Made by a program: the position numbers and the translations under genes
Notes under the pieces: model-generated
What the model saw: only the letters and a program-made list of their open reading frames with translations
Database searches by the model: none
What the model was told of the DNA's origin: nothing
In this document: positions 2,246 through 49,372 of the stretch, in pieces
How positions within the stretch are numbered: position 1 is the stretch's first letter
Layout: the number at the start of each line of letters is the position of its first letter
DNA from: Shigella virus Moo19
DNA: 64,000 nucleotides
Direction: 5' to 3' (one strand)
Sequence record: MZ358387

Positions 2246-2434
2246 ATGGATAATATTGCATTAAAAAACTACCGTACTGCTATTCAAGCCATAGAGCTTA
2301 TTAAAGCAGAGGTAGAAGTAACCTTTGGGTTACACGTAGGAACAGACCCAGAACCAGAAATAATGGTGGAAGCTTATAACATTGTTCTGGCTATACGTGC
2401 AGGTTATAACAGGCTATGCGAAGCATCTAAATAG
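2246..2434 (+). CDS. Hypothetical small protein (62 aa)
   Basis: ORF track only. Confidence 0.3.
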   Translation: MDNIALKNYRTAIQAIELIKAEVEVTFGLHVGTDPEPEIMVEAYNIVLAIRAGYNRLCEASK

Positions 2435-2480
2435 GAGGTATATAATTACCCTCTATCTAATATTTTTGCATGTCAAAATG

Positions 2481-2593
2481 GTGATAGCTACTTGTGATAG
2501 CTGTGGTGTGGCAGGGGCTACACCCTTACACGTTAACTACCCCCCCGGTATGTTGACTCATGGGTGTACTACCCTACCCCACCTTACACGTTA
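2481..2593. repeat. Intergenic direct repeats: gtgatagct x2 (2481, 2494) and ccttacacgtta x2 (2524, 2582), plus repeated ctaccc runs
   Basis: Read directly from sequence. Confidence 0.6.
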
Positions 2594-2595
2594 CA

Positions 2596-2608
2596 CATGC
2601 TCCGCATG
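2596..2608 (+). promoter_or_regulatory. Tri-loop hairpin catgc-TCC-gcatg (bottom strand GC-GGA-GC); candidate N4-type vRNAP early promoter hairpin
   Basis: Perfect 5-bp stem, 3-nt loop; same core as hairpins at 3584 and 7442; upstream of ORF 2652. Confidence 0.35.
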
Positions 2609-2651
2609 GTATGGACATGTCGTCCTTATCATTAACTATTGGAGCTATACA

Positions 2652-2972
2652 ATGACTACTACTGCTAACGTACGTATGACTGCTGGAACTTTACTGGGTA
2701 CTGTAAATGAAGCAGCTACTACTATTGCTGATACCTTTGGTACTGCAACTAAAGCTGTTGGTATGCTGAACTCATATGTCACTACTATGAGTGAGAAACA
2801 ACGTATTCGTACTAAATTGGAAATGCATACATTTACCAATAAATTAGCTGAAGAAACAGCTATGCAAGATACTATCCGTAAGAAAGCTATCGTAGAATTC
2901 TGCAAAGATGAAAAGAATGCTGAACTCTATAAAGCATCTTACGATGATGTAATGGCACTGTTATCTAAATAG
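2652..2972 (+). CDS. Hypothetical protein (106 aa)
   Basis: ORF track frame 2382-2972; ATG 2652 has ggag RBS 8 nt upstream; upstream part of track ORF is repeat-rich intergenic DNA. Confidence 0.4.
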   Translation: MTTTANVRMTAGTLLGTVNEAATTIADTFGTATKAVGMLNSYVTTMSEKQRIRTKLEMHTFTNKLAEETAMQDTIRKKAIVEFCKDEKNAELYKASYDDVMALLSK

Positions 2973-2981
2973 TAAAATAAC

Positions 2982-3010
2982 GGAAGACTCCTTGGAGTCT
3001 TCCTGTTTTA
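2982..3010 (+). terminator. Rho-independent terminator (9-bp stem ggaagactc/gagtcttcc, loop cttg, then tgtttta)
   Basis: Read directly. Confidence 0.6.
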
Positions 3011-3013
3011 AAG

Positions 3014-3032
3014 ATTAGATAGTCAATCTAAT
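3014..3032. promoter_or_regulatory. Palindrome attagat-agtca-atctaat containing 14-mer ttagatagtcaatc (second copy at 3529-3542)
   Basis: 7-bp inverted repeat read directly; lies just after a terminator and upstream of ORF 3063. Confidence 0.4.
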
Positions 3033-3062
3033 TTGAATAAATAGTTAAAAGAGAATCCTACT

Positions 3063-3209
3063 ATGAGCAAACTAAAAAACGCATTTATCCTGATTGTCAG
3101 TATCCTTGCACTTGTTACTTTGGTTTCCGTTCACATTGGAAAACCTCTGGTAAACACTGACTATGGTAATGGTCAAAAAGTAAAATCCATCCTGTTAGCG
3201 GATAAGTAA
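3063..3209 (+). CDS. Small putative membrane protein (48 aa, MSKLKNAFILIVSILALVTLVSV...)
   Basis: Hand-translated; hydrophobic N-terminal segment; below the 60-aa cutoff of the ORF track. Confidence 0.3.
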   Translation: MSKLKNAFILIVSILALVTLVSVHIGKPLVNTDYGNGQKVKSILLADK

Positions 3210-3276
3210 AAACCGCATCTAGAAACTGGGCTGTTCCACAGCTTACGGATACATTTCAACCAATTAGGAGGCATCC

Positions 3277-3492
3277 ATGAACGTAGAAAATATCCGTATA
3301 ATTGAGAATTGCTTTGGTGATAAACCAGTAGACCTCAGCAACGCAAGAAGGTCTACAGATGAAGAATACAGAGAGTTTTTATCCTTACTCGATGAATATC
3401 ATATGCAAGGGCATGTTGAATTACATGCCCATCTGCATAACTCAGGCTACTTCATGGATAAACTGGAAGCTGAGACAGGCTGTCCATTCTAA
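3277..3492 (+). CDS. Hypothetical protein (71 aa)
   Basis: ORF track; strong RBS aggagg upstream. Confidence 0.45.
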   Translation: MNVENIRIIENCFGDKPVDLSNARRSTDEEYREFLSLLDEYHMQGHVELHAHLHNSGYFMDKLEAETGCPF

Positions 3493-3499
3493 GTAAAGC

Positions 3500-3526
3500 A
3501 TTCCCTCTTAGGAGGGAATTAGCCAT
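3500..3526 (+). terminator. Terminator-like hairpin (attccctc-ttag-gagggaat)
   Basis: 8-bp inverted repeat read directly; weak T tract. Confidence 0.4.
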
Positions 3527-3528
3527 CT

Positions 3529-3547
3529 TTAGATAGTCAATCAAAAG
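3529..3547. promoter_or_regulatory. Second copy of 14-mer ttagatagtcaatc in an imperfect palindrome
   Basis: Identical 14-mer to 3015-3028. Confidence 0.4.
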
Positions 3548-3583
3548 TAGATTGTGATTCTACTTTAGTTCAACTTCAAAACC

Positions 3584-3600
3584 AAGACGCTCCGCGTCTT
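3584..3600 (+). promoter_or_regulatory. Tri-loop hairpin aagacgc-TCC-gcgtctt (7-bp stem); candidate vRNAP early promoter hairpin
   Basis: Perfect inverted repeat; GC-TCC-GC core shared with 2596 and 7442. Confidence 0.35.
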
Positions 3601-3705
3601 AAGGATGTATGAGTGCATCCAATCCTGTATGAAATCTTAGTCCTTTGTTTGGGTATGTTCACCGACGAGCGTACCCATAAATCACATTTATCTGGAGAGT
3701 ATAAA

Positions 3706-4089
3706 ATGTCTATTAAAACTTTTGGTCAAACTTTCGGTTCTGCTGTTGCTAACAAACCTGCTGCAACTGAACGTCCTAAAGCTAAATTCTGGCTGAACGT
3801 TGGCTATACAGCTAACGAAGGCACAGAAGAAGCTAAGTTCATCTCACTGCCTACTGGTATTCCACTGGATACTCAGGAGCATGTAAGCACTAAGTCCAGC
3901 AATGCTGACTTCCGTGCTATGCGTTGTGCTCAGAACGACCTGCTTGACCAGCTTCTGGCATTTGCAGAAGGTCTGGAACCAGGTGAAGAAGGTGTCATTC
4001 AACTTCAGGTTCAACTTCGTCGAGTCAAAGAAGAAGAAGCTGACATCCCAGCAGACGAGAATAAATATGCTCGTAAGCTGACTTTCTAA
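3706..4089 (+). CDS. Hypothetical early protein (127 aa)
   Basis: ORF track frame 3613-4089; ATG 3706 with ggagag RBS; followed by strong terminator. Confidence 0.5.
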
Positions 4090-4098
4090 TCACTAACT

Positions 4099-4127
4099 GG
4101 ACTCCCTTCGGGGAGTCCTTTTATTTT
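4099..4127 (+). terminator. Rho-independent terminator (ggactccc-ttcg-gggagtcc + T tract)
   Basis: Read directly. Confidence 0.7.
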
Positions 4128-4232
4128 AACTCAGCGATAAACTAAGTTTAACTTTTAGGAGCTTTTCGACGAAGAGTCACTAAAACTTAAACGTAAACAC
4201 AAGCAGATAACTTAGAGTAAGGAGTAATCAAG

Positions 4233-4418
4233 ATGCGTGTACTATGTAACCGTTATAATCCGACTAGGTTAATTAACATAATGGCTATGTATGGTAGCAA
4301 GATGGCTTATGATGCTCGTTGGCAGGTATCTGTAGAAGATAGAGATGGTCAGCATTATGACCACTACTTCACAGCTAAGCCAACTCGTAAACAAATCCGC
4401 AAACTTCACAAAGGATAA
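4233..4418 (+). CDS. Hypothetical protein (61 aa)
   Basis: ORF track; RBS taaggag upstream. Confidence 0.4.
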   Translation: MRVLCNRYNPTRLINIMAMYGSKMAYDARWQVSVEDRDGQHYDHYFTAKPTRKQIRKLHKG

Positions 4419-4422
4419 TGCT

Positions 4423-4575
4423 ATGAAGCTACTGGCAGAGATTCTATGTATTTTATTAATGATACTGCTGGTAGCTGCATTTCCGTGGCTATTAGCCGTA
4501 GGCGTAATTATTGGCATGTTCGCAGCCGGAGTGAATGATGCTCGTGGCAGAGATGAACCAGGTGGAGACGTATAA
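4423..4575 (+). CDS. Small membrane protein (50 aa, MKLLAEILCILLMILLVAAFPWLLAVGVIIGMF...)
   Basis: ORF track frame 4345-4575; ATG 4423 with aagga RBS; hydrophobic. Confidence 0.4.
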   Translation: MKLLAEILCILLMILLVAAFPWLLAVGVIIGMFAAGVNDARGRDEPGGDV

Positions 4576-4576
4576 C

Positions 4577-4657
4577 ATGGCCTATGTAATCATAGTTGTT
4601 GCGTGGTTAGCTGTTGGTGTATTCGTAGGTATGGCATTCGGGAGAATGGCTAAATGA
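4577..4657 (+). CDS. Possible tiny hydrophobic peptide (26 aa, MAYVIIVVAWLAVGVFVGMAFGRMAK)
   Basis: Hand-translated; tightly packed between neighbours; speculative. Confidence 0.2.
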   Translation: MAYVIIVVAWLAVGVFVGMAFGRMAK

Positions 4658-4845
4658 TTGAATTTAAGGTAGGCGATATAATTGAACCAATAGAGGGATT
4701 CCCACAGTGGAAAGGTATAACAATACTTGAGTGGAATCCTATTACTCGTGATGCCTCAGTTAAGCTTAAATCCGGTACTGTTATACATGGTTTTAATCTA
4801 GACCCTGACTATGGAGTTGAATTCAAATGCGTAAGTCCATCTTAA
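4654..4845 (+). CDS. Hypothetical protein (63 aa)
   Basis: ORF track; ggag RBS. Confidence 0.4.
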   Translation: MIEFKVGDIIEPIEGFPQWKGITILEWNPITRDASVKLKSGTVIHGFNLDPDYGVEFKCVSPS

Positions 4846-4989
4846 TGGGAACCAGAGAAGATGTTATTAAGCGTCGTGCTAAACAAGTTACTGCTCAATC
4901 AGTGCCTGTTACTGGTTATAGTAGAACATATAACAGTAAGCCTAAGCAGTATATCGTAACTTTCAATCATCCTTGTATTCAATAATAGT

Positions 4990-5017
4990 GGCTCCCATTA
5001 GGGAGCTTCTATTTTTT
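4990..5017 (+). terminator. Terminator (gctccc-atta-gggagc + T tract)
   Basis: Read directly. Confidence 0.5.
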
Positions 5018-5031
5018 ATTTAGAATAGTTA

Positions 5032-5062
5032 GTCCCGAAGGGACAATCTTACGAAGTAAGAT
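5032..5062 (+). promoter_or_regulatory. Two adjacent GAA tri-loop hairpins (gtccc-GAA-gggac; atcttac-GAA-gtaagat)
   Basis: Perfect inverted repeats read directly; function unknown. Confidence 0.3.
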
Positions 5063-5095
5063 TAGACATAGATAGATATAGGAGAAACTATTAAA

Positions 5096-5404
5096 TTGTT
5101 AAATGAAATCATCTGTATTCCACAGAATAAGGCTCGCATTGCAGATAGGAATATTCGTATTCATCTGCCAATGCCATTAGCTAACCCATTCAGTAAGTCT
5201 GAAAGACTGAACCAGGATGATGTAGATGTGGCTTATGAGGCATATCTGCGTAATCGTCTTATCTCAGGCGATAAGCTAATCACTGCTGAAATGGAAAAGA
5301 TTGCAGGCTTTGTCATGGACAAAACAGGCAAACCTGTAGGACTGATAGGCAATGAGCCAGAGGTAAATGTAATACGTAAACTTATTATGGAGGCTATTGG
5401 ATAA
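5096..5404 (+). CDS. Hypothetical protein; N-terminal half resembles DUF4326-type motif (LANPF...AYEAYL) seen in ORF 6220
   Basis: ORF track (non-ATG start at 5096 implied); start uncertain. Confidence 0.35.
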   Translation: MLNEIICIPQNKARIADRNIRIHLPMPLANPFSKSERLNQDDVDVAYEAYLRNRLISGDKLITAEMEKIAGFVMDKTGKPVGLIGNEPEVNVIRKLIMEAIG

Positions 5405-7441: not shown

Positions 7442-7460
7442 AGCTGCTCCGCAGCTTTTG
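7442..7460 (+). promoter_or_regulatory. Tri-loop hairpin agctgc-TCC-gcagct followed by TTTT; candidate vRNAP promoter hairpin or short terminator, 30 nt upstream of RNAP II genes
   Basis: Perfect 6-bp stem, TCC loop; same GC-TCC-GC core as 2596 and 3584. Confidence 0.35.
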
Positions 7461-7488: not shown

Positions 7489-8307
7489 ATGTACTCATCT
7501 ATTGAACATCAGAAGCAACTGGAAACTCTGTTTAACAAGAATCAACTAATTCCTCGTATGAGGAAAGAGTTCGAGGACTCCGAAGAAATCCAATTCACTA
7601 AGTATTTTGAGCATATTGGCATCGACCCCAAACTGGGTATTGATGCAATGGTGCAAATTGCTCTGCATAAACGTGCTGACATTCCTACTATGGTTGGCTC
7701 ACTCATGAGTCACAGTCAGGATGCTCAGTACATAGCAGACACTCTGCTTAAGATGGCAGAGCACGACTGCTTTGACTTCGACCCAAGTATCGATAAGTTC
7801 ATCGTCATCTATGAAATCAGTGATGATGTACAACTGGAACTGGAAGCATTCCAGTATCCACTGCCTATCGTCAGTGAACCGAGAGAGGTTAAAGATAACC
7901 GTGGCTCAGGTTACTGGAATACCAAAGGCAGTATCATCCTCAAGAAGAACCACCATGAAATGGATGTGTGTCTCGACCACATTAACCGTATGAACAATCA
8001 ACGACTCAGCATCAACTGGGACGTTGCCAAGTTCGTCAAAAACTCATGGGCTAACCTGGATAAACCTAAAGAAGGGGAATCCCGTCAGGACTTTCAGAAG
8101 CGTGTACGTGCATTCGAGAAATACGACCGTACAGCAAAAGACGTTATGGAACTGGTGACTAAAGAAGGTAACAACTTCTCACTTGACCATAAGTATGACA
8201 AGCGTGGACGCACCTACTCACAGGGCTACCACATTAACTATCAAGGTACTAGCTGGAATAAAGCTGTTATCGAGTTCGCTGATAAGGAGTTGGTAAACGA
8301 TGAGTAG
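7489..8307 (+). CDS. Phage RNA polymerase II small subunit (N4 gp15-like)
   Basis: 272 aa; lies upstream of a T7-like RNAP C-terminal-half homolog; N4-like organisation; strong RBS aggag. Confidence 0.55.
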   Translation: MYSSIEHQKQLETLFNKNQLIPRMRKEFEDSEEIQFTKYFEHIGIDPKLGIDAMVQIALHKRADIPTMVGSLMSHSQDAQYIADTLLKMAEHDCFDFDPSIDKFIVIYEISDDVQLELEAFQYPLPIVSEPREVKDNRGSGYWNTKGSIILKKNHHEMDVCLDHINRMNNQRLSINWDVAKFVKNSWANLDKPKEGESRQDFQKRVRAFEKYDRTAKDVMELVTKEGNNFSLDHKYDKRGRTYSQGYHINYQGTSWNKAVIEFADKELVNDE

Positions 8308-8587: not shown

Positions 8588-8636
8588 TTAACCCATATGC
8601 GTGTTCCATACAGGAACCAGATGCAGGAGTAATAAA

Positions 8637-37484: not shown

Positions 37485-37566
37485 GGGGGAGTAGTCAAGC
37501 GGTCGAAGACGGCAGACTGTAAATCTGTTATCCCACACGGTAGTTCGAATCTACCCTCCCCCACCA
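37485..37566 (+). tRNA. tRNA-Tyr (anticodon GTA), 10-nt variable region, CCA encoded
   Basis: Hand-folded cloverleaf: acceptor GGGGGAG/CTCCCCC, T-loop TTCGAAT, anticodon loop CTGTAAA. Confidence 0.65.
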
Positions 37567-37567
37567 C

Positions 37568-37642
37568 GGTAAGTTAGCTAATTGGTGAAGCGGCTGACTG
37601 TTAATCAGTGATAGAGTGGTTCGAGTCCACTACTTACCGCCA
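37568..37642 (+). tRNA. tRNA-Asn (anticodon GTT), CCA encoded
   Basis: Hand-folded: acceptor GGTAAGT/ACTTACC, T-loop TTCGAGT, anticodon loop CTGTTAA. Confidence 0.7.
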
Positions 37643-37647
37643 CATTA

Positions 37648-37724
37648 CGGAGTTTAGCTCAGTCTGGTAGAGCATCTGCTTTGGGAGCAGAGGGTCGTAG
37701 GTTCGAGTCCTGCAATTCCGACCA
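37648..37724 (+). tRNA. tRNA-Pro (anticodon TGG), CCA encoded
   Basis: Hand-folded: acceptor CGGAGTT/AATTCCG, D-arm GCTCAGTCTGGTAGAGC, anticodon TGG. Confidence 0.7.
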
Positions 37725-37730
37725 AACAAT

Positions 37731-37806
37731 TAGGGGTTAGTTCAGTTGGTAGAACATCGGACTTTGATTCCGAATGTCACAGGTTCGAATCCTGTACCCC
37801 TTGCCA
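37731..37806 (+). tRNA. tRNA-Gln (anticodon TTG), CCA encoded; position 1-72 is T-T (unpaired)
   Basis: Hand-folded: D-arm GTTCAGTTGGTAGAAC, anticodon loop CTTTGAT, T-loop TTCGAAT. Confidence 0.6.
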
Positions 37807-38840: not shown

Positions 38841-38872
38841 AAAGCCCCTCTAATGAGGGGCTTTTTTATTTT
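38841..38872. terminator. Bidirectional terminator (aaagcccctc-taat-gaggggctt flanked by A-run and T-run) between convergent + and - transcription units
   Basis: Read directly; T/A tracts on both sides. Confidence 0.7.
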
Positions 38873-41800
38873 AGTTTACCAGATTCATCCAAGGGTTGAG
38901 GTTATGAGCACGTAAGCCCTGACCCAATCCGATAGAGTAATCCAGTCTACCATCAGCAGCAGCCGAGAACAGGTTATCCTGTAATGGCAGACCAACGTTA
39001 CCAAACATGGTAGGAGTTGGAGCCAGCATAGCCATAGCTGCATGAACAGGGTTATTACGAATCATGGACACTGCAACTTTAGTAGAACGAATCTTAAAGT
39101 TATAGAACCACATCAGACCCATGCTTTCCATGTAACCACGGAAACGACCCGGCAGACGGTCATAGTTAATGAACTCTTCGGTAACACGACCCAGAGCTTC
39201 TTCCTTACTCTTACCTTTACGCTTAGTCAGTTCATCATAGATGATTGCTTTAGCAATAAAGTCAGAGTACTCAACCGTCTTCTGGATACCCTGGAACAGA
39301 GCAGTATCCTTAGTGATAAGTGCATAACGACCAGCAGTTTGCAGCTTCTTAGGCAGCTTATCTGCTAAACGCTGCATGTACTCCTGTACCTTACCATCCG
39401 GGATTAACAGGTCATCACGAGAGATACCAGCATCAGCAATAGAAGAGAACTCACCAGCTTCCAGCAAAGGCCAGATACTCATACGCTTATAGCTATCATT
39501 GATGGACTGAATCTCAGCTTTCAGTTTACGAGCCTGGTTCGGATTAGTAGTTGCACGAAGTTCTGCTTCAGCATCAACCTGGCGAAGACGAGACTTCATA
39601 TACTGGTTAATCTCAGCAGTCTTCTGAGGGATACCTTTAGCAATATCCTTAACTGGAACACCACGGGCAACCATCTGATAGAGGTTAGCCAGGAAGTTCA
39701 CAGCAGGAACCACGAGAGACTTGACCACGATTAAGGTCTTAGCCTCACGTACAACCGTCTGAGTGATATTCTCACCCTGCATAAAGTATTTGTATGCACG
39801 GTTGCCAAATACGCCCAGCATTGCTTTCTTGAAGGTATCCAAAGTCTCAGGTGACCAACGAGAGTTACCAGTCCATACATCACCAACAGAAGCAGCACGA
39901 TAACCAAGTGCATCATTCAACATGTCACGACGTACCCACAGTTCACCATTACCAAACAGTGACTCAGCTTTCTGACGAGTTTCTGCATTCATCAGACGCA
40001 TAGCATCAGCAGTAACTGGGTCAAGTTTAGAACCAAGAAGGTTAATGTACTGGCTCTTATTGCTGGTAGAATCTGCCATGTCCTTCTCGTACATAGCGTG
40101 AAGATTTTCAATCAGAGCATCGTTAAACTTCTGGGCTTTAGCTTCTTCTACCTGACGACCTCGCCATACACCAATTGCTTTAGCAAGGTTATCCTCACCA
40201 GCAATGTGAGTCAGCATGTTAGGGTCAATAGAGTGCTCATAAGCAACCACACGACCATTGCCATCATAGATAGGCATCAGTGGTTCATTACCACGTTCAC
40301 CCTTCGCCAGAGCTTTGGTGATACGGTCAACGGAAGGCTTGTCAGTAATACGACCAGCAACCATTGTTCCCATTGTGAAGCCAGTACCAACATCCACACC
40401 ACCAGCAGTATTACGAACGTTCTGGAGAATACCCTGTGAGTATGGAGCACGAGCAGCAACCGGGCTGAAGTAGTAACCACGACTACGAGTACGTTCACCA
40501 GAGCTACCCTGATAACCAGCAATACGAGTGAATGACTTCTCACTCAGTTCGTTAAACTGGCTGTCTTCTGCAACAATCAGGTTAACACCCTGCTTAGTCT
40601 CAGAAGGAATGTAGCCTTTGTAGTGGTTCAAACGAGCACGGTCATCATTCTGTGCTTTACGTTTCTCTTCCACACGCTGGCCTACCAGATAGGAAGTGAC
40701 AAAGTCCATACCTTCGGTTTCAGTCTGAGCCAGGGAAGCTAATGCCTCACGGTCAGCCTGACTCATTGCTTCGATGGCATACAGAGTAATCAGCTTGTCT
40801 AAGGTGTCCACATCAACGGTAGATTTAACGCTGGTACGCTCACCTAACAGACGGGAGATTGCCTCAGCATTACGCAGCAGGTTGTTACCGACAGTACCAT
40901 TAATCATGTACTGAGCCAGTTGCTTAGACTTACGGTTAATCAAAGGCCAGTTACGTCCTGCCTGATTCTGGAGGTCAGCTTCCAGCTTATTAACCAGCTT
41001 ATCCATTTCTTTCTGTGAAGACAGCAGGTCACGAATTTCACCCAGACTCATGGTGTCACGCAGTACAGCAAGGTCAGTTTTACCCATACCAGTGTGCATA
41101 GCTTTCCACTCTGCATCAGTCAGCTTACGGCTGAACTTAGAAGCAATAGTGGTAGGCAGATGCTCACGGAATTGCTGACGGTCAGCCTGTACCTGAGAGC
41201 GAACAGCTTTAATCATGTCATAGACAGAAGCATTCGACTTAGTACGACCTACGATGTCATTAACCAGGTCATAGAAAGGTTGCCATGCTTTTCCCTGGTT
41301 CATTGCAGCCATAACACCCTGTGCAACTTTCTCACCGTTCTTCTCAGTAGCAATAGCAGCTACCAATTGAGCAGCATGAGCAGTTGCCTTAACCAGTGGG
41401 TTCTTAGCATTAGCAGCAACATCACGAGCAGTATCCAGTGTGGCATCAGCCAGACGTTCTACACCATCAACAATATATTGGTTAGCACGGTCAATCATAT
41501 TCCCAGTTGGGGTAGCAACAGAGTCATAGAAGGACTGAGCATTCAGGCTGGATTCCATAATAGTTTCTGCCAGAGCATCAATACCTTCCTGAACGTTAGT
41601 TGCTTTGGTATCACCAGCAACACGCTTGTTCAGGCTATCCATTGCAGCTACGCCAATGTTAGTCAGCATTGCATCAATAGTATTACCGGATGCTTTATCT
41701 GCTTTCATAACAGGCATGTCAGTCAGTACGTTACGTACCTCTTCGCTTACCATTGCCAGACCAACAAAGGTAGGCAGTAAGGAAGAACGACCCTGAGCAT

Positions 41801-44800
41801 CAAACTCAATATTGTTAGCACCCATCAACGTATCGAACTTCTGTTGAGCATAGTAACGGTCAGCAGGGTTAGTGCTGTTCGGGTCTGCCATGAAGTCTTC
41901 TACTTTCAGGTTCTTGGTAACGTGAGTGTAATACTCCTGAGCACGAGCCAGAGCAGCAGGATGAATTGCAGCCTCAGTTGCTAGTGCAGCAACAATGTTG
42001 GTGAACAGACGACGTTCTTGCATGTTCATAGTAAAACCATGCCCCTGAACATCACGAGTTACCTTAACTGCATTCACTACTGCGTCAGAGAATTTACCCT
42101 TACGCATATGTTGCTGTACCGGGTCATTACCCAGGTAGTTCGTAATGAGACGGTCAAAGGTTTGACCCAGTGAAGTAAGACGGTCATTGTTGCCATAAGC
42201 AGTGCTATGGAACAGGGTAGCCTCAGCAGTAACCGGAGCAACCGGAGGCTGTGAACGCATCACTACAGCAGAGTTAAACAGCAGACCGGAGAACATATCT
42301 TCACCGTAAGCAGGGGCTTTCTTACGACCAAAAATGAGGCGTTTAATTGCTTCATAAACATCTTTAACCATCCTGGTAAGAGCAGTGGTTTTCTTCTGCT
42401 TCTTAATCAGTTCATGGTTGGTTAAGCCCCATGCCATGTACTCATTCAGTGCAGCAGCTTTAGCCATTGCTGGGTCAATGAAACCGTTGGACAGATGACC
42501 ATTGATAGTATCCAGTGCATCAGCGTAAGCCTCACGCATAGCCGGAGTATCTTTGGATACATCCAGACTACGGAACTGTTCCATCAGATTCTCGATGTTC
42601 TGTACAGCTTCATTGGTCTGGCCTTGATAGTGGTCAAGTACAGTCTCAAAAGTAGAAGCATGAACCAGTTCATGAATCAAGGTTTCCATTGATGGGCTAA
42701 CCAGGTAGACAGTCTTATCTGCAAAGTTAGTCCAACCATAGATATTACCTGCATTTGCAGCTTCAATATCTTCTGGAGCAGGACGCTCTACGTTACGTTC
42801 CATTGCATACTGGTCAATCTGGTTCACGTTACCGTAAACAACCTTGTAGCCTTTAGCAGCCAGTGACTTCTGAATCTCATTCAGTACAGCAGCCTGTTCA
42901 ACAGGAAGGTTGGACTCTTTAGCCAGTTTGTTAATAGCAGTCTGAGACAGCACACGAACACCAGACTTCAGAGCACGGCCTACAGTATCAAACTTATTAG
43001 TATCGGCTACTGGAGTCTTCTCAGCTTTACGAGCCTCTTTACGAGCCTGCAATTCAGCATCGAATAGCTCATTCAGTTTTGCTACTTGCTGGTCAACAGT
43101 CAGACCATCCAGAGAGATATTACCGTTGTTCACATAAGGGGAACCAACAGCAGCCATCTGGTCAACAGTAGTCTGTACCTGGTTCATTACCTTGTGACGG
43201 ATATCGACACCCAGAGCAATGTTACGCAGGTTACGCTCAATAAGATTAACACCTGCTTTCTCAATCATATCAATCTTATACTGCCTGTCACCATCAACAC
43301 GACTGATATGAGAAAGTTGTTCAAAATCCAAAGCAGAACGGGCAATACTATCAATTGCTTCATCTGATAACTTATTGAAATCTACATTTTTTACAAACTT
43401 AGAGAAGGAGTCATACACATTCTTGATAGGGTTACCCTGCCATGAAGTGTATACAGCTTCGTTAGCCTTACGGCTTGCATCAGTGATGTCATTGATACCG
43501 ATGTTCATACCATCAAAGATTTTGAGAGTATTTTTCGGTGCACCTTTCATAATAGAAAGGGTCTGCATCATCATGCCGTCACCAGTACCAATCGTCATGA
43601 AAGGAATACCAGCAACACCAGCTTGTGACGGTGCATAGATGCTCATTGGCACACGCATACGGTCATCAAAGTTGGTAGCCAGAACCTGGTTAGCAACATC
43701 AGTATTCTCAGAACCAGCAATGTAGAAAGTCTGGGAACCAGTCTCAATCATTGGAGCTAAGTCAGACAGTGAAGCCTGAATATCGTTAAGCTCTTTCTGA
43801 GTTAAGAAGTCACCCTTCTTCCAGTTAGGGTCTTTTTCTTTTTCTGCCAGCTTCTCCTGGACACGTTGCTGGAACATGTCTTGCAGAACCAGAGACTGAA
43901 TCTGGGTAGCTTTCTGAAGCTGTTCAGTGGAGTGCATCAGCCCTTCACCAACAGTATTCTGAATACCCTGTCTCATTGGTTCAACGAAAAAGTGCAGCAT
44001 GTTCTCTTGCAGAGACTTCAGTTGCTCACCTTTGACAGTGAACTTCTGAGGGTCAATCTTGCCAGACATAGCAGTACCAGTGTCTTCAAGAGACAGTTTA
44101 CCTTTACGCATAACTGGAACAGTACCAGTCAATGCTTTCATGTCTTCAATGAAACGACCGAGCATAGCCTCAGCATCGGCCTCAGATGCTGCCTGCTTGC
44201 CGAACATTGCCATAGCCGGGGAAATGTCCGGGTTCTGTGCACGGGCTTGCAGAACGTCGCTGAAGCGTTCGTAGATGGCATCAGTAATTGCACTCACCAT
44301 CTTGCCTGCAATACCACGAGCACCGGAACCATAAATGGTAATGGTCAGTGGGTTCTTGGCAATGCCACGTTTCAGTTCGAGGTTGCCTTCTTCATTGATG
44401 TTATAGTCAGGAATGAACAAGTCCATCAGAGAGGACAGATGATTCATCTGAGTATTAACAGCCGGGTTATTGGCATAGGTATTTCGCAGGTTAGTCAGTG
44501 CAGCTTTCAGACCGTTAGTGGATGCTTCGTACAGGTCAACGCTATCGTCAATAGAACGATGTTCGTTCATCGTCTTACCAGCACGACCAAAGAATAGACC
44601 ACCCTTAGCAGTATTCTGTACCCATTCTTTGGTGAACTTACCACCAGTCATCAGCATCATTGCGTTAATCGGACCGTTGGTTACACCATCAGCCTCAACG
44701 TACAGTGGAGTGTTGAACTTAGACTTGTCTTCAGCATTCAGGTAACGGGCATACTCCATCAGAGCCATGAGAGCTACGAAGGATTTATCACCACCCAATG

Positions 44801-47800
44801 CAGTATTCAGAATCTCAACAGAGTTATCTGGCAGGTTCCCAGTTTTATCGAAATCAACCATCATATCGACAGCAGGTTTCAAATTGCCTTCCAGTGCAGC
44901 AGTCAGTTTTGCTGACATTGCCTCACGAGACATGTTGTGAACCTTGATGCCCAATGCCTGAGCCAAGCCAACCTGGAAATCAGAGAAGGTCTGTGAGTTT
45001 TCATTGGACAGGTCAATAGTAGAAAACGTAGGCAGAATAGCTTCACGAACCAGCTTACTGGACTGAGGATTATTCTTACCAAGCATCTGCATACGACCAA
45101 CACGAGTCATGTTGTAGGCATAGTGGATTGGAGTTTCCAGTCCGTTTTCCTGTGCACGAGTTTGCTCTACCACACTAAACAAGGAATCATAAGCCATAGC
45201 TACTGACAGGTTTTTACCTTCCAGTGACTTAGCAGTATTCACATTCAGCAGTTCAGGATTAAGCGTACCAGCACCCATCAATTCCAGAATCTTGTCACGA
45301 CCCATAGCCTCATAGAAGTTAACCATAGGTTCATGAATACGGAACTCAGTAGCCTGTTCTGCTTTCAGAGCAGCTTTCTGTTCCGGGGTATTCTTAACAG
45401 CAGGGTTGCGTAACTGAGTCTGAGCCACAGAAGGTACGTCGTCACCGAAGTACATTTTCTCTTCTGGTTCTACCAACACAGCTTCTTCAATTGCTGTAGG
45501 GAATTTATTGATAGGGTCATTGTCTGCCAGCTTATCAATGGTATACAGACCAACAGTCTTAGTGGAGTCTGGGTCAATTTCAGAGACATCTAGCATAGTC
45601 TCAGTAACTTCACCTGCTTCAATAAGAGCAGACAGAATCTCAGTTGCCATAGCAACAGGGATACCTTTGGTATAACCCAGTGGTGCATTAGGGTTACGGT
45701 CAAAGCCCCAGTAAGATTCAATTTTCTGAGCCAGTGAGTTAGTAGCTTCAACGAGAGTCTGAGCATTCTCAAACATCTCAACTACACCTTCCGGTAACAG
45801 AGCCTGTTCAATACCAGTAATAGCAGCCACGTCTTTAGCATCTTTAACGGCAGCATTCTGAGTAGCAGTCAGTCGCCATTGCAGACCAGCAAGTACGGCA
45901 GTTTCAAGCAGAGAATCGTTGAACTTAAAGCTATTGCCATCTGGTTCAACAATATTCAGCAGCTTACCACCAACCCAACGGTTAGCTTCAGTGCCCTCAG
46001 CAAAACGCTTACCTACGTTCTTGTTAGACAGGAACTTAGCCAGTCGGTCATTCAGAATGGATTTAATGTTTTCACCCGTGTTCATCAGGTCTTTATAACG
46101 ACCAGATACATCAGGGGTAAGAGCAGTATTCTCACTCTGAGTAAACGTTTCGAAACGTGCATTAGAAGACAGAGCCTGACCAATATCTTTCATTGGAGAC
46201 TCGGAACCAGTGGTACGAGACTTAGGTTCAGCAGGTAATGAGTAAGCAATCTTGAGGTAATTTTTTACCCCAGGCTGGCTGACATCAGTACTCCCAACCA
46301 AATCAGGATAAGCAGCGTCAATACCACTACGAGTGGATTCCACTTCATTAGTAGTTTCCTCAGTATTTTCAGTAACATCCTCGATGCTACCCTCATTGAT
46401 GAGGGTAGCATCCTTTGCCTTTTCGGATTGAGGCTTAGTTACTTTCTCTGGTTCTGCCTTAGACTCAGTAAAAGGAGCACTATTTTCTACCGTCGATTCC
46501 CTATTAGGAGTTACAGTAGGTGCAGCCTCCTGAGTTTGTGCAGGAGTTTCGTCAACTTGATTCACTGGTTCATTAGTCTGTTGGGATTGAGCAGCGTCAA
46601 GATTGCCCTGACGGAACTCTTTAACCACCTGGGCAGCAGGCTTGTCCAGACGTGAATCCAATGAGGTAACATTGATATGAGAAACGTTAAGCTCCGGGTA
46701 AGCCGTAGCAAGTGCATTAGCAATATCAGCTACGGTTTTGGCTTCCAGTCCTACTTGCTGGGCAAACTTAACCGACTTGGTATCGTAAGGATTAACACCG
46801 AGTCCAGTACGACTTCTTACCCATTCACGGGAAGGGGTGAGGGCTTGGTAATGGACAGACTTATTCTTATCCGCATTCCCAGAAATCAGATGTTCATTCA
46901 ACGCTCCGACCTTGTTCTGCATGTGCTGGGCGAACTGCATAAAGTCGCTCAAATAAGCGGAAGCCAAATCGAAGTTACCAGAGTTATACGCAGACCGAAT
47001 GCGTTTAGCATGTTGCAACGCAGAGTACTGGCCTTCATTAGAACGAGACTCGTCGGTTTTAATCTGTTTACCCACAATGTCTTGAGGCCGTAAACCAAGC
47101 TGTTCAGCTTTGGTATCAAACTCACGTGCTCCCTGTAATAGAGCAGCAGCGGATTGCAGGGCAGCACGTTGACGATTGTTCAACGTAATCTTGCCTTCAC
47201 TCGCATGTTTCAGAACCATGTTCACTGAATCAGCGTCCAGTACTTCCGGGCTTACGTCAGCAGCCATTGCTACGTTGTTAGCCTGATTCTGGTCTGCTAC
47301 ATCTTCGGTCACATTCAGATTACCTTGTTCAGCTTGTTCCTGAATCATGGAATGAATGGCACGGAATGCACGAAGTACCTTTGGAGTATTCTGGATGTTA
47401 GCCATCAGACCCGAATACTGGTCGAGCACAGCATTAGCAGGACTATCTTTAGGCAGATTGTTCAGTGCAGCAGGGTCACGGTTAACGAAGTCTTCCATCT
47501 GCATAACCATGTCGTACATATTGGCAGCAGCTTCCATCATCTGGTTCGGGTCTTCAGTAGTGTTAACTACATCAGCCAGTTTCTGGATTACCTGAACTCG
47601 GTCAGTGGAACCGTTAACAGCTTCCTGAACCACAGGAGAAGCATCAGCAAATTCTTCCGGGTTAATACGGGTAGCATTAACCAAATCACTTGCATACTGG
47701 TGTGCAGCAGCCTTCTCTTCAGGAGAGATGTCCATTGCTTCAACAGCATCAGCCATAGTTGCCTGAGCAGTATCTGCTTGTGCAGCAGCTTCCTGAGCAG

Positions 47801-49310
47801 CCTCAGCTACTTTAGCGTCAGCAACAGGAGAAGCCTCTTCATTGCGTCGTGCAACTTCTTCACCACGTTGAACCAGGATATTGGTAATAGGTGAAGCAGC
47901 TTTAGCTACGACATTACCAGCAGCGTTAAGACCAGCCAGGGTAGTACGCAGAGCAGGACCAGCAGCAGCACTTGCAGCTTTAACAGCAGAGCCAGGAGCT
48001 TGAGCAACTCCAGCAGAGCCGAAGCCATAGAGTGCACCCAGACCAGCTTGCTCACCCACACCTTTGAGTGTGTCACGGGTAGCATCAACGTTACTCCGAA
48101 TTGCACGGTTCTGTGCATACTGACCAGTACCAGACTGAATACCTTCTTCCACAGTCTCACGAAGCATGTTGGAACCAGCACCAGCAAGTGAACCTACTTT
48201 CAGTGGATTCAGTTCAAACTTGGATACCAGTGGACCCGTTGCAGCAGCAACCGGAGCAGTGATAGCAGCAGCATCAATACCTGTTTCAGAAGCAGTCTGA
48301 CGACGAGCTTCATCTGGAGAAAGACCATCTTTGATATGTTGCTGATAAACAGGAGACTTAGCAGCCAGTTCTTCATGAGACATTTTCATAATCTCAGAAG
48401 CAGTTTGCTGATAAGCACCACCAGCTTCCATTGTGCCAATAGCAATGGCAGCAGGAGCAACCTTAGAGGCAGCATTAACCAACTGTGCAGGACGATGGCC
48501 TAATTCAGCAGCAAGTGCAATTGCACGAGCAGCTTTTTCACCACCCATTACAGCACGACCTAATGCAGCAACCCCTTTAATAAGAGGACCACCCGTAAAC
48601 AGTGAGCCTACTCCTTCGCTCAATCCATCTGTTGCAGCCATACCAGTGTCAAGAGTGTTGGCAACAGAATCATAAGCGTCACGGCCAATACGAGAAAGAG
48701 AAGCGACCAAATCACTCTCGCCATCTTTAATATCCTGTTCGTATAAACGCTGGTTTTTCTGAGCAGATAGCTGGTTCTGGTTCTGAACTACTTTACGGGA
48801 AAGATTTAAAGCATCAGACTGAAGACCATGAACACCTTCATTCAACCAGTCCATGCCACTAGCTATGGTAGCACCAGCATTATCGTTGATAAGACCTGTT
48901 CCAAGAGAAGCAATGCCCCCAAGGGTATTAGCAACACCAAGACCAACACCAGAAAGAGAATCACCAATTGCTTCTGCATTCGTTCTCTCTCTGGATAAGT
49001 CCTGACGAACAGAATCGGCTGCATTAGCACGGCTATTAAGAATACGAAGACCTTCTTCGGTTCCATACTTAGCAATAAGTTCCATTGGGGAGGCTTGAGT
49101 AAAATCAGCCTGAAGTGAACCTGGTTCGAATGCACCAATGCCGAGATTACCTACCCGACCTGTTTGAAGGTTATAGGCAGTATCTGGGGTGAGTTGGAAA
49201 GGGTTATACCCTTCAGCAGCTTGCTTCTGGGAGGTTGCAGTAGAGACATCGACTTGCTTAGCATTAGTGATGCTGTCTGCGAAACCTGCCAGTCTGTCAA
49301 ATGTTGACAT
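38871..49310 (-). CDS. Virion-encapsidated giant RNA polymerase (N4 vRNAP gp50-like), ~3479 aa
   Basis: Size; T7-like motifs in central part (YVEADGVTNG; RGIAKNPLTITIYGSG; KIFDGMNIG), the two Asp 392 residues apart; ATG 49310 has aggaaa RBS (track start 49352 is GTG). Confidence 0.85.
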   Translation of the reverse strand: MSTFDRLAGFADSITNAKQVDVSTATSQKQAAEGYNPFQLTPDTAYNLQTGRVGNLGIGAFEPGSLQADFTQASPMELIAKYGTEEGLRILNSRANAADSVRQDLSRERTNAEAIGDSLSGVGLGVANTLGGIASLGTGLINDNAGATIASGMDWLNEGVHGLQSDALNLSRKVVQNQNQLSAQKNQRLYEQDIKDGESDLVASLSRIGRDAYDSVANTLDTGMAATDGLSEGVGSLFTGGPLIKGVAALGRAVMGGEKAARAIALAAELGHRPAQLVNAASKVAPAAIAIGTMEAGGAYQQTASEIMKMSHEELAAKSPVYQQHIKDGLSPDEARRQTASETGIDAAAITAPVAAATGPLVSKFELNPLKVGSLAGAGSNMLRETVEEGIQSGTGQYAQNRAIRSNVDATRDTLKGVGEQAGLGALYGFGSAGVAQAPGSAVKAASAAAGPALRTTLAGLNAAGNVVAKAASPITNILVQRGEEVARRNEEASPVADAKVAEAAQEAAAQADTAQATMADAVEAMDISPEEKAAAHQYASDLVNATRINPEEFADASPVVQEAVNGSTDRVQVIQKLADVVNTTEDPNQMMEAAANMYDMVMQMEDFVNRDPAALNNLPKDSPANAVLDQYSGLMANIQNTPKVLRAFRAIHSMIQEQAEQGNLNVTEDVADQNQANNVAMAADVSPEVLDADSVNMVLKHASEGKITLNNRQRAALQSAAALLQGAREFDTKAEQLGLRPQDIVGKQIKTDESRSNEGQYSALQHAKRIRSAYNSGNFDLASAYLSDFMQFAQHMQNKVGALNEHLISGNADKNKSVHYQALTPSREWVRSRTGLGVNPYDTKSVKFAQQVGLEAKTVADIANALATAYPELNVSHINVTSLDSRLDKPAAQVVKEFRQGNLDAAQSQQTNEPVNQVDETPAQTQEAAPTVTPNRESTVENSAPFTESKAEPEKVTKPQSEKAKDATLINEGSIEDVTENTEETTNEVESTRSGIDAAYPDLVGSTDVSQPGVKNYLKIAYSLPAEPKSRTTGSESPMKDIGQALSSNARFETFTQSENTALTPDVSGRYKDLMNTGENIKSILNDRLAKFLSNKNVGKRFAEGTEANRWVGGKLLNIVEPDGNSFKFNDSLLETAVLAGLQWRLTATQNAAVKDAKDVAAITGIEQALLPEGVVEMFENAQTLVEATNSLAQKIESYWGFDRNPNAPLGYTKGIPVAMATEILSALIEAGEVTETMLDVSEIDPDSTKTVGLYTIDKLADNDPINKFPTAIEEAVLVEPEEKMYFGDDVPSVAQTQLRNPAVKNTPEQKAALKAEQATEFRIHEPMVNFYEAMGRDKILELMGAGTLNPELLNVNTAKSLEGKNLSVAMAYDSLFSVVEQTRAQENGLETPIHYAYNMTRVGRMQMLGKNNPQSSKLVREAILPTFSTIDLSNENSQTFSDFQVGLAQALGIKVHNMSREAMSAKLTAALEGNLKPAVDMMVDFDKTGNLPDNSVEILNTALGGDKSFVALMALMEYARYLNAEDKSKFNTPLYVEADGVTNGPINAMMLMTGGKFTKEWVQNTAKGGLFFGRAGKTMNEHRSIDDSVDLYEASTNGLKAALTNLRNTYANNPAVNTQMNHLSSLMDLFIPDYNINEEGNLELKRGIAKNPLTITIYGSGARGIAGKMVSAITDAIYERFSDVLQARAQNPDISPAMAMFGKQAASEADAEAMLGRFIEDMKALTGTVPVMRKGKLSLEDTGTAMSGKIDPQKFTVKGEQLKSLQENMLHFFVEPMRQGIQNTVGEGLMHSTEQLQKATQIQSLVLQDMFQQRVQEKLAEKEKDPNWKKGDFLTQKELNDIQASLSDLAPMIETGSQTFYIAGSENTDVANQVLATNFDDRMRVPMSIYAPSQAGVAGIPFMTIGTGDGMMMQTLSIMKGAPKNTLKIFDGMNIGINDITDASRKANEAVYTSWQGNPIKNVYDSFSKFVKNVDFNKLSDEAIDSIARSALDFEQLSHISRVDGDRQYKIDMIEKAGVNLIERNLRNIALGVDIRHKVMNQVQTTVDQMAAVGSPYVNNGNISLDGLTVDQQVAKLNELFDAELQARKEARKAEKTPVADTNKFDTVGRALKSGVRVLSQTAINKLAKESNLPVEQAAVLNEIQKSLAAKGYKVVYGNVNQIDQYAMERNVERPAPEDIEAANAGNIYGWTNFADKTVYLVSPSMETLIHELVHASTFETVLDHYQGQTNEAVQNIENLMEQFRSLDVSKDTPAMREAYADALDTINGHLSNGFIDPAMAKAAALNEYMAWGLTNHELIKKQKKTTALTRMVKDVYEAIKRLIFGRKKAPAYGEDMFSGLLFNSAVVMRSQPPVAPVTAEATLFHSTAYGNNDRLTSLGQTFDRLITNYLGNDPVQQHMRKGKFSDAVVNAVKVTRDVQGHGFTMNMQERRLFTNIVAALATEAAIHPAALARAQEYYTHVTKNLKVEDFMADPNSTNPADRYYAQQKFDTLMGANNIEFDAQGRSSLLPTFVGLAMVSEEVRNVLTDMPVMKADKASGNTIDAMLTNIGVAAMDSLNKRVAGDTKATNVQEGIDALAETIMESSLNAQSFYDSVATPTGNMIDRANQYIVDGVERLADATLDTARDVAANAKNPLVKATAHAAQLVAAIATEKNGEKVAQGVMAAMNQGKAWQPFYDLVNDIVGRTKSNASVYDMIKAVRSQVQADRQQFREHLPTTIASKFSRKLTDAEWKAMHTGMGKTDLAVLRDTMSLGEIRDLLSSQKEMDKLVNKLEADLQNQAGRNWPLINRKSKQLAQYMINGTVGNNLLRNAEAISRLLGERTSVKSTVDVDTLDKLITLYAIEAMSQADREALASLAQTETEGMDFVTSYLVGQRVEEKRKAQNDDRARLNHYKGYIPSETKQGVNLIVAEDSQFNELSEKSFTRIAGYQGSSGERTRSRGYYFSPVAARAPYSQGILQNVRNTAGGVDVGTGFTMGTMVAGRITDKPSVDRITKALAKGERGNEPLMPIYDGNGRVVAYEHSIDPNMLTHIAGEDNLAKAIGVWRGRQVEEAKAQKFNDALIENLHAMYEKDMADSTSNKSQYINLLGSKLDPVTADAMRLMNAETRQKAESLFGNGELWVRRDMLNDALGYRAASVGDVWTGNSRWSPETLDTFKKAMLGVFGNRAYKYFMQGENITQTVVREAKTLIVVKSLVVPAVNFLANLYQMVARGVPVKDIAKGIPQKTAEINQYMKSRLRQVDAEAELRATTNPNQARKLKAEIQSINDSYKRMSIWPLLEAGEFSSIADAGISRDDLLIPDGKVQEYMQRLADKLPKKLQTAGRYALITKDTALFQGIQKTVEYSDFIAKAIIYDELTKRKGKSKEEALGRVTEEFINYDRLPGRFRGYMESMGLMWFYNFKIRSTKVAVSMIRNNPVHAAMAMLAPTPTMFGNVGLPLQDNLFSAAADGRLDYSIGLGQGLRAHNLNPWMNLVN

Positions 49311-49372
49311 AGCTTGTTTCCTGTTCAAACTTATATCTATAAGAGAACTCACTGTACATTAAGTGAGGGTAA

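Follow-up and report, generated by a model that had tools for sequence, protein, structure and literature searches.

Transcription of the early region of coliphage N4 is carried out by an RNA polymerase that is injected with the virion (vRNAP; PMC4496689), and N4 P2 is one of the hairpin promoters of this enzyme (Haynes & Rothman-Denes 1985; mini-vRNAP complex in PDB 3C3L, reviewed in PMC4496689). The determinants of such a promoter are, on the template strand, A or G at -11, G at -10, G at -8 (contacted in the major groove) and C at +1, together with a G:C loop-closing pair and a loop with 5'G and 3'A, and transcription starts 8 nt downstream of -8 with GTP at +1 and +2 (PMC4496689). The class is further defined by an inverted repeat with a 5-7 bp stem and a 3-nt loop centred at -11, in which bases of the stem beyond the conserved core may differ provided that they still pair. 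N4 gp2 (p17) is a single-stranded DNA-binding activator recruiting N4 RNA polymerase II (Carter et al. 2003, via PMC4496689 and PMC7145618), to which it binds, and it is needed for middle transcription (PMC4496689). In the Pseudomonas phage LUZ7, early hairpin promoters mapped by ONT-cappable-seq drive Drc (PMC9163698), the hairpin-promoter-driven functional analogue of gp2 in Pseudomonas N4-like phages (PMC9163698, PMC7145618). Here we analysed positions 3500-3705 of a 64,000-nt stretch of Shigella virus Moo19 (MZ358387; the whole stretch is called the window below), which precede an open reading frame (ORF) at 3706-4089, and we found this region to be the junction of two early transcription units of an N4-like coliphage. 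With high confidence we read it as a P2 promoter-gp2 unit preceded by dispensable upstream elements.

By its nucleotide matches the window is that of an N4-like coliphage: 78 phage records match 3000-4400 in megablast, all of them N4-like coliphages and Klebsiella or Shigella relatives, the best being vB_EcoP_G7C (Gamaleyavirus, 84.8% nucleotide identity). Compared with the physical genome the window is circularly permuted, and from about 2505 onward it aligns with position 1 of G7C and N4, C-rich left end included. A left end placed at about 2505 by alignment to G7C position 1 puts the region 3500-3705 about 1 kb from that end and thus within the early region. The stretch from base 1 to about 2500 is equivalent to the right end in genomes of the G7C type, with the physical left end (GGGGCTACACCC...) at about 2505-2520. 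The polymerase expected to read hairpin promoters is encoded in the window as well (Table 1), and its contact residues K114, R119, W129, D901 and R904 (mini-vRNAP numbering) are conserved relative to N4.

The hairpin at 3584-3600 is, judged by its sequence, the ortholog of the N4 early promoter P2. It forms a perfect 7-bp stem with a 3-nt loop and folds better than shuffled sequence on either strand (z = -4.4 to -4.9). With the loop centre, 3592, as position -11, the template strand carries -12A, -11G, -10G, -9C and -8G as well as C at +1 and +2, so that all contact bases published for vRNAP (PMC4496689) are found on it, and every feature that defines the vRNAP hairpin promoter of the N4 class at the sequence level is present. 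Side by side, N4 P2 reads AAGAAGC-TCC-GCTTCTT-T-GGATG and the Moo19 element AAGACGC-TCC-GCGTCTT-AA-GGATG, the two sharing the 7-bp stem, the 3-nt loop (GGA on the template), -8G, -9C, the G:C closing pair, the GG 11-12 nt from the loop centre, conserved polymerase contact residues and a location about 115 nt 5' of the gp2 ATG. The preliminary description had suspected an N4 early transcription unit from position, and the match to N4 P2 in sequence, position and spacing to the start bears this out. The transcription start was placed at G3603 from the geometry of N4 P2 (centre 565, +1 G576, TTTT before it) and the rule given in PMC4496689.

Conservation follows the same determinants. For comparison we used 16 Enquatrovirinae from IMG/VR plus named records; loci are cited by L numbers, L013 being G7C. 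A GC-TCC-GC hairpin stands 113-120 nt 5' of the gp2 ATG in the 16 relatives (151 nt in one with an insertion), the loop-closing pair (-13G:-9C) and the template loop GGA are invariant, as is the alignment column of non-template C3595 (template -8G), and GG is found at the +1/+2 offset in 16/16. Compensatory changes are seen at three stem pairs, in contrast to an unchanging loop, closing pairs and +1/+2. Pairing holds in 95% of cells overall versus 30-47% in slid-partner controls, and in 92% of the helix cells.

The full signature also exceeds chance by far. Searching for GCTCCGC within a stem of at least 5 bp and GG at +11/+12 from the loop centre, we obtained three sites in 64 kb, all on the plus strand, whereas mononucleotide shuffles of the window give an expectation of 0.0023 per window; the heptamer GCTCCGC alone is not enriched (3 observed versus 2.9 expected in the window). 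Among the 124 hairpins with a 3-nt loop in the window, GC-TCC-GC is found only in three (centres 2602, 3592 and 7449), all intergenic, on the plus strand and with GG at +11/+12. That 3584-3600 is instead a terminator or an RNA-stability hairpin of the upstream gene can be given hardly any credence: it is a G+C-rich perfect hairpin 3' of an ORF and would be present in any read-through RNA, but its loop has 3 nt, it has no T-run and it does not appear in the terminator scan. Moreover, an invariant TCC loop, closing pairs and GG at +11/+12 on a covarying stem are the signature of a promoter and not of a terminator, and this signature recurs 5' of gp1 and of the RNA polymerase II genes. A host-polymerase promoter in 3400-3700 was rejected because a sigma-70 promoter scan of this interval found none. 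The hairpin is the sole promoter element of the region 3500-3705.

The gene downstream is, from protein comparison, gp2. Its 127-aa product aligns with N4 gp2 (N4 685-1068) at 71.9% identity over 127/127 residues (100% coverage, E = 9e-56) and matches phrog_4099 (E = 3e-47), 195 phage records from all over the N4-like family contain homologs, and G7C annotates the ortholog as gp2, all of which agrees with the earlier suggestion of a gp2-like product. A local Pfam-A scan of four small proteins gave no significant match for gp2, and a precomputed table lists PF26984 for gp2 homologs. The gene has its own hairpin promoter and terminator and is located between gp1 and the RNA polymerase II genes; the strong ribosome-binding site (RBS; GGAG at 3694-3697) and the terminator described for the 127-aa ORF were found again, the latter as a stem-loop at 4099-4118 followed by TTTTATTTT, with homologous terminators visible in N4 and G7C. 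Moo19 gp2 would function as an RNA polymerase II cofactor by orthology. A PDB sequence search with gp2 gave no match, the AlphaFold2 model is of moderate confidence (pLDDT 65, pTM 0.40), and Foldseek of this model against the PDB returned no match with E < 1, which allows no statement on structural similarity between gp2 and Drc. The names of gp2 orthologs in GenBank are inconsistent, ranging from 'RNA polymerase RNAP1 subunit A', 'integrase' and 'portal protein' to 'ssDNA-binding protein' and hypothetical protein.

If N4 is taken as the guide, gyrase would supercoil the injected DNA negatively and thereby extrude the inverted repeat as a cruciform, host SSB would melt the non-template arm, and initiation at this site in vivo would be rifampicin-resistant. 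The virion-injected polymerase would then recognise the template hairpin through -11G, -10G, -8G and the G:C loop-closing pair, start with GTP at G3603, read gp2 and stop at 4099-4128, yielding an RNA of about 520 nt. The single-stranded-DNA-binding gp2 would in turn bring the two-subunit RNA polymerase II to middle promoters, a role by which the P2-gp2 unit would drive the early-to-middle transcription switch. In this scheme the identity of the determinant sequences, the covariation of the stem, the orthology of gp2 and of the polymerase and the presence or absence of the upstream elements were observed here, and the +1 at G3603, hairpin extrusion and termination would follow from N4 biochemistry.

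Table 1 Features of the gp2 region and of related early elements in the Moo19 window
Feature	Position	Strand	Description
Terminator-like hairpin ATTCCCTC-TTAG-GAGGGAAT	3500..3519	+	8 nt after the stop of the 71-aa gp1.2 homolog (ORF 3277-3492)
Second 14-mer copy TTAGATAGTCAATC, 'TTAGATAG box' of the early-region spacer	3529..3542	+	Exact repeat of 3015-3028
Hairpin AAAGTAGA-TTGTGAT-TCTACTTT, second half of the spacer module	3544..3566	+	8-bp stem, 7-nt loop
Predicted early promoter hairpin, ortholog of N4 P2	3584..3600	+	AAGACGC-TCC-GCGTCTT on the non-template strand; 5'-AAGACGC-GGA-GCGTCTT-3' on the template strand
Predicted transcription start, +1 G and +2 G (G3603, G3604)	3603	+	11 nt from the loop centre, 8 nt from -8G
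5'-end stem-loop of the predicted transcript, GGAUG...CAUCC	3603..3620	+	GTG/ATG start in and beside the loop
Long gp2 frame, 158 aa, GTG start, 17.7 kDa	3613..4089	+	Open frame containing ORF 3706-4089
Putative stem-loop in the extension-coding mRNA, TGGGTATGTTC / GAGCGTACCCA, conserved ACCGAC loop	3650..3677	+	Pairing across relatives
Shine-Dalgarno GGAG for ATG 3706	3694..3697	+	8 nt before the ATG
Short gp2 frame, 127 aa, 14.0 kDa	3706..4089	+	Conserved core of the N4 gp2 family
Intrinsic-type terminator GGACTCCC-TTCG-GGGAGTCC + TTTTATTTTA, predicted end of the gp2 unit	4099..4128	+	Terminator scan
Predicted promoter P1, CATGC-TCC-GCATG, +1 G2613	2596..2608	+	Upstream of gp1 (2652-2972)
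Predicted promoter P3, AGCTGC-TCC-GCAGCT, +1 G7460	7442..7456	+	Upstream of the RNA polymerase II subunit genes
RNA polymerase II subunit genes	7489-8307 and 8601-9854		phrog_2166 'N4-like RNA polymerase' and phrog_2051
vRNAP gene	38871..49352	-	3493 aa, 68% identical to N4 gp50; predicted reader of the hairpin promoters

Upstream of the promoter, folding recovered the hairpins 3500-3519 and 3544-3566, like that at 3584-3600, where the preliminary description had placed them. Its treatment of these elements and a 14-mer as one stack fails, however, since only 3584-3600 is a promoter, the other three stand 5' of +1, and at least five relatives possessing P2 and gp2 are without them. In pSb-1, ZQ2, EC1-UPM, CU10EC and ShWW44, the gp1.2 stop runs straight into AAAACC-P2, P2 and gp2 being kept without the three upstream elements; E20 has the first hairpin only, and G7C has the first hairpin and a longer spacer. 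The three elements (3500-3566) thus do not belong to the promoter, for which they are dispensable. Their packing, together with P2, within about 100 bp directly 5' of gp2, the better folding of each element than of shuffled sequence and the preservation of the TTAGATAG box over long evolutionary distance could be taken to mean that all four form one regulatory leader of gp2 (an attenuator, a riboswitch-like switch or an operator array). We consider this very unlikely, because three of the four stand upstream of the predicted +1 and hence outside the P2 transcript, none of the three is present in at least five relatives whose P2, leader and gp2 are the same, no Rfam family matches 2400-5300 even at E <= 1, and the same spacer module precedes a different ORF in other phages.

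The first of these elements, the hairpin 3500-3519, resembles the true terminators of this phage in stem and loop. Its 8-bp stem with 4 G:C pairs (-7.6 kcal/mol as DNA, z = -3.6) was equalled by 0/200 shuffles, and it follows the gp1.2 stop TAA at 3490-3492. No T-run is found 3' of the stem, where the tail reads TAGCCATCTTTAG, and the terminator scan of the plus strand reports 2982, 4099 and 4990 but not this hairpin. It is identical in G7C, has the loop TTAA in E20 and is absent in pSb-1, ZQ2, EC1-UPM, CU10EC and ShWW44. Given the missing T-run we call it terminator-like only, and we take it to be a weak terminator or the 3'-end hairpin of the gp1.2 unit.

The second and third elements belong together as a spacer module (3529-3566). 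The exact 14-mer occurs only twice in 64 kb, both times on the plus strand and immediately 3' of a terminator-like hairpin. A palindrome is formed by the first copy alone, in the context TTAGAT-N5-ATCTAA; of the palindromic 14-mer reported at 3529-3547, the exact repeat at 3529-3542 stands, whereas this copy is not a palindrome and the span given is 19 nt. In 64 kb an exact 13-14-mer repeat by itself is within what chance can produce, and the weight of this one comes from position and from conservation in relatives: the TTAGATAG box lies 3' of the gp1 terminator in nearly all Enquatrovirinae relatives and also in the distant L019 and L024. The first copy (3015-3031) is located 3' of the gp1 terminator and 5' of gp1.1 (3063-3209), a 48-aa hydrophobic ORF without its own hairpin promoter; a TTAGATAG(ATAG) box holds this position in nearly all relatives, with TTAGA-N7-TCTAA also in L024. 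The two copies bracket the gp1.1-gp1.2 cassette, and dropping one copy and the DNA between them gives the N4-like order terminator-box-hairpin-P2. In N4, which is without gp1.1 and gp1.2, the gp1 terminator is followed by GATAGTTCAATAACTATCTACTTTAAAGAG and then by P2, with ATCTACTTTAAAGAG directly 5' of P2.

What the module precedes elsewhere suggests its origin. L008, L009, L011 and L016 have, 3' of the gp1 terminator, ATTAGATAGATAGTCAAAAGTAGAT..ATCTACTTTAGGAG..ATG of a 60-aa ORF (MSLNPKQAEKL...), the module reading ...AAAGTAGAT..ATCTACTTTAGGAG, and the 3' arm of the hairpin adjoins AGGAG and this ORF. In G7C the module persists, the Shine-Dalgarno being mutated and the 60-aa ORF reduced to a remnant of 17 codons, and in Moo19 the box and the hairpin (-4.7 kcal/mol, z = -3.0) alone remain. 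As no ORF follows the hairpin 3544-3566 here, we read 3529-3566 as the relic of a conserved early-region spacer, formerly the 5' leader of a small ORF that would have been lost in Moo19. Seen across these phages, the module of TTAGATAG box and hairpin marks boundaries where small early genes are gained and lost.

The module could instead be active, as a promoter (of RNA polymerase II or another enzyme), an RNase processing or stabiliser site, or a pause or termination signal for T7-like phage polymerases, in which case gp2 would have a second, differently timed expression mode. For N4 RNA polymerase II, short AT-rich promoters are described (PMC4496689), and middle-promoter descriptions name an AT-rich segment from -7 to +2, a start at T and two motifs. 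An active role would fit with a box that is kept in distant N4-like phages, follows terminators and precedes ORFs without their own hairpin promoter (gp1.1 at 3063; the 60-aa ORF in the four relatives named above), and a transcript from 3529-3566 would include AAGGA 7 nt before GTG 3613. We nevertheless regard such activity as unlikely, though to a lesser degree than a common leader. TAGATAG-type boxes are found in the early region only (3016, 3530 and about 5068), which argues against a general middle promoter, and none is present in the intergenic DNA of the middle region (8-37 kb), in which one would expect many RNA polymerase II promoters; CTACTT is not enriched in intergenic DNA, and several relatives have no box copy between gp1.2 and P2. 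K-mer enrichment in intergenic DNA, a CTACTT site map and TCTACTTTA statistics yielded no genome-wide motif. A search of viral contigs for AAAGTAGAT-N3-8-ATCTACTTT returned 78 mostly unrelated contigs and carries no weight, the pattern being a short AT-rich palindrome.

Several points weigh against a P2-gp2 unit with dispensable upstream elements. The template base at -1 is T here (the non-template strand reading AA and not TT at -2/-1), a pyrimidine in place of the purine that stacks on the initiating GTP in N4, with several relatives sharing the T, and the intercalating-hairpin lysine K267 of vRNAP is T in Moo19. Both +1 and the termination sites would be extrapolations from N4. The hairpin 3500-3519 is without the T-run of the clear terminators of this phage, which makes its terminator role weak or uncertain, and the conservation of the TTAGATAG box in distant N4-like phages means that the box is probably functional, so that 'relic' may understate 3529-3566.

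Turning to the gp2 start, GenBank records are split: the long form is annotated in N4, G7C and ShWW44, the short form in E20, ZQ2, EC1-UPM and CU10EC. In Moo19 the gene probably starts at GTG 3613 (158 aa, as in the N4 and G7C annotation) with ATG 3706 internal, and the 127-aa product that had been described as the gene persists as its core frame. The additional residues 1-31 form a hydrophobic extension, (M/V)(H/N)P followed by 13-14 hydrophobic residues, TD and a charged linker, for which AlphaFold2 predicts a helix at residues 3-22 and a disordered linker to the core. The extension frame is open and in phase in 16/16 relatives, over lengths of 93, 96, 99 and 132 nt, all of them multiples of three, with ATG (14) or GTG (2) as its start codon, and the 31-residue extension translates in full in 82/82 enterobacterial N4-like phage records. 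Its pairwise differences by codon position (323:94:283) and a ratio of nonsynonymous to synonymous polymorphism (pN/pS) of 0.46, versus 0.78 and 7.1 in the other two frames, are those expected of a coding frame, a serine is kept through switches between TCC and AGT codons, and homologs at 57-61% identity keep M(H/N/Y)P, the hydrophobic core, TD, the charged linker and (S/T)GEY(K/Q)M with conservative replacements. On these comparisons we take the extension to be coding, with both starts possibly in use.

The internal start has conserved features of its own. No relative departs by a single nucleotide from ATCTGGAGAGTA(C/T)AAAATG, the internal RBS with ATG 3706; M32 hardly varies, and distant gp2 homologs start at the equivalent Met. 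The start of the long form would stand only some 10 nt into the transcript, without a normal Shine-Dalgarno and inside the conserved stem-loop 3603-3620. Pairing is kept in 98.7% of the cells of this stem-loop, with covariation at one pair (GGAUU/AAUCC in L004 and L017); the NTG immediately 5' of CATCC is conserved, and the rest of the loop is variable. Further downstream, the partners of the stem 3650-3677 pair in 94% of cells versus 34-57% when slid, with two compensatory pairs, and we regard it with moderate confidence as a conserved structure, the sequences being closely related and the region also protein-coding. The computed masses of the long and short forms are 17.7 and 14.0 kDa for Moo19 and 18.0 and 14.3 kDa for N4, whose gp2 has the historical name p17. 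The pI of 5.20 given for N4 gp2 (PMC7145618) is the same as the isoelectric point computed for its short form.

These observations can be read in another way, namely that 3613-3705 is an untranslated leader conserved for its RNA structure and that gp2 is the 127-aa protein only, as the preliminary description and several GenBank records have it. The invariant strong RBS and ATG at 3706, the distant homologs beginning at the equivalent Met, the two stem-loops conserved in the leader, an upstream start partly within the 5' stem and without a proper Shine-Dalgarno, and the match of the short form to the published pI would all suit this explanation. It accounts poorly, however, for a frame that stays open and in phase across four lengths in all relatives and in all 82 records, for a conserved second codon position and a pN/pS that is lowest in the gp2 frame, for the serine kept across codon families, for a start codon that is always ATG or GTG and for the hydrophobic pattern in homologs at 57-61% identity, and we think it rather improbable. 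We put forward, tentatively and as something less than an even chance, that gp2 of N4 and its enterobacterial relatives is made as two in-frame forms from one early mRNA, a long one of 158-164 aa and a short one of 127-128 aa. The stem-loop 3650-3677 between the two starts could then set the ratio of the forms or allow autoregulation by gp2. For annotation, the comparative evidence is that an extension of 31-33 codons is translated and that the internal RBS is also under selection.

The older N4 literature describes gp2 and the middle-transcription complex as fractionating with the cell membrane (PMC4496689), and the hydrophobic helix of a long form might explain this behaviour. The segment has 13 apolar residues and a conserved Glu, its Kyte-Doolittle mean over 19 residues is about 0.7 (hand calculation), and it is too short and interrupted for a classical transmembrane span; an in-plane anchor and a protein-protein helix are equally possible.

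P2 is accompanied by two sister promoters in the window. P1, P2 and P3 lie 0.1, 1.1 and 4.9 kb from the predicted left end, and their targets (gp1, gp2 and the two RNA polymerase II subunit genes) are the same as in N4; compensatory changes set the stem of P1 apart from GTTGC/GCAAC, the stem in N4 and G7C. At 3230-3248 a fourth hairpin with a TCC loop, GCTGT-TCC-ACAGC with GG at +11/+12 (3247-3248), stands 30 nt 5' of the gp1.2 homolog (ORF 3277-3492) and is also kept in G7C and, with 8 bp in the stem, in pSb-1. It keeps -8G, -10G, -11G and -12A, its loop-closing pair being T:A and not the G:C said to be needed for extrusion, and it may be a weak or variant vRNAP promoter. In G7C (L013, 504-590), an extra canonical hairpin promoter, AACGC-TCC-GCGTT, follows gp1 and is followed by a terminator about 65 nt further on with no ORF between; this pair, which is not in the Moo19 window, may produce a small early RNA.

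Other small hairpins occur around the early genes. CTTTTCGACGAAGAG at 4140-4175, 3' of the gp2 terminator, forms a small hairpin with a GAC loop that is kept in N4 and G7C. Two GAA-triloop hairpins, GTCCC-GAA-GGGAC and AATCTTAC-GAA-GTAAGATT, are located on the plus strand at 5033-5066 and followed by TAGATAGATA (region 5033-5080), and in L016 (about 2455-2490) a 33-nt in-frame insertion of two similar GAA-loop hairpins lies inside the N-terminal extension of gp2. These GAA-loop mini-hairpins look like recurrent, possibly mobile elements of early regions. Outside the early region, the window carries a cluster of four tRNA genes at 37485-37806 on the plus strand (Tyr-GTA, Asn-GTT, Pro-TGG and Gln-TTG).

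Compared with N4, Moo19 has a gp2 that is 72% identical over the 127/128-aa core, in the same gene order and with a dedicated early promoter and terminator, and an in-frame N-terminal extension like that of the N4 annotation (161 aa in N4, 158 aa in Moo19), with GTG in place of the ATG of N4 as the start of the long frame. The two differ in that gp1 is directly upstream of P2 in N4, whereas gp1.1 and gp1.2 stand between them in Moo19, and in that the Moo19 start is predicted from sequence while N4 P2 is a known promoter. G7C, the closest annotated genome, shares the order gp1 - gp1.1 - gp1.2 - gp2 as well as the TTAGATAG box and CTACTTTA upstream of P2; its spacer, however, is about 150 nt long with the 17-codon remnant, as opposed to 65 nt in Moo19, and its extra hairpin promoter after gp1 and the HNH endonuclease gene after gp2 are both missing from the Moo19 window. 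LUZ7 likewise dedicates a strong hairpin promoter of the injected polymerase to a single-stranded-DNA-binding cofactor of RNA polymerase II, but its promoters are tandem with starts 13-14 nt from the hairpin centre, in contrast to the single promoter and 11 nt of Moo19, and Drc is unrelated to gp2 in sequence.

In-frame dual starts are found in other phage genes, such as T7 gene 4A/4B and lambda S107/S105, and gp2 would resemble these in having two in-frame starts on one mRNA, a weak masked one upstream and a strong RBS downstream, although the gp2 forms are predictions. For annotation, our analysis provides the early promoter starts 2613, 3603 and 7460 and the gene of the early-to-middle switch. 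It leaves existing knowledge of the unit unchanged, its side interest for specialists in N4-like phages lying in the gp2 start and the spacer module. Together, the P2-gp2 unit is already known in kind, a textbook N4 unit in a new relative, and the gp2 extension with the possible two forms of gp2 is the only part going beyond the textbook.

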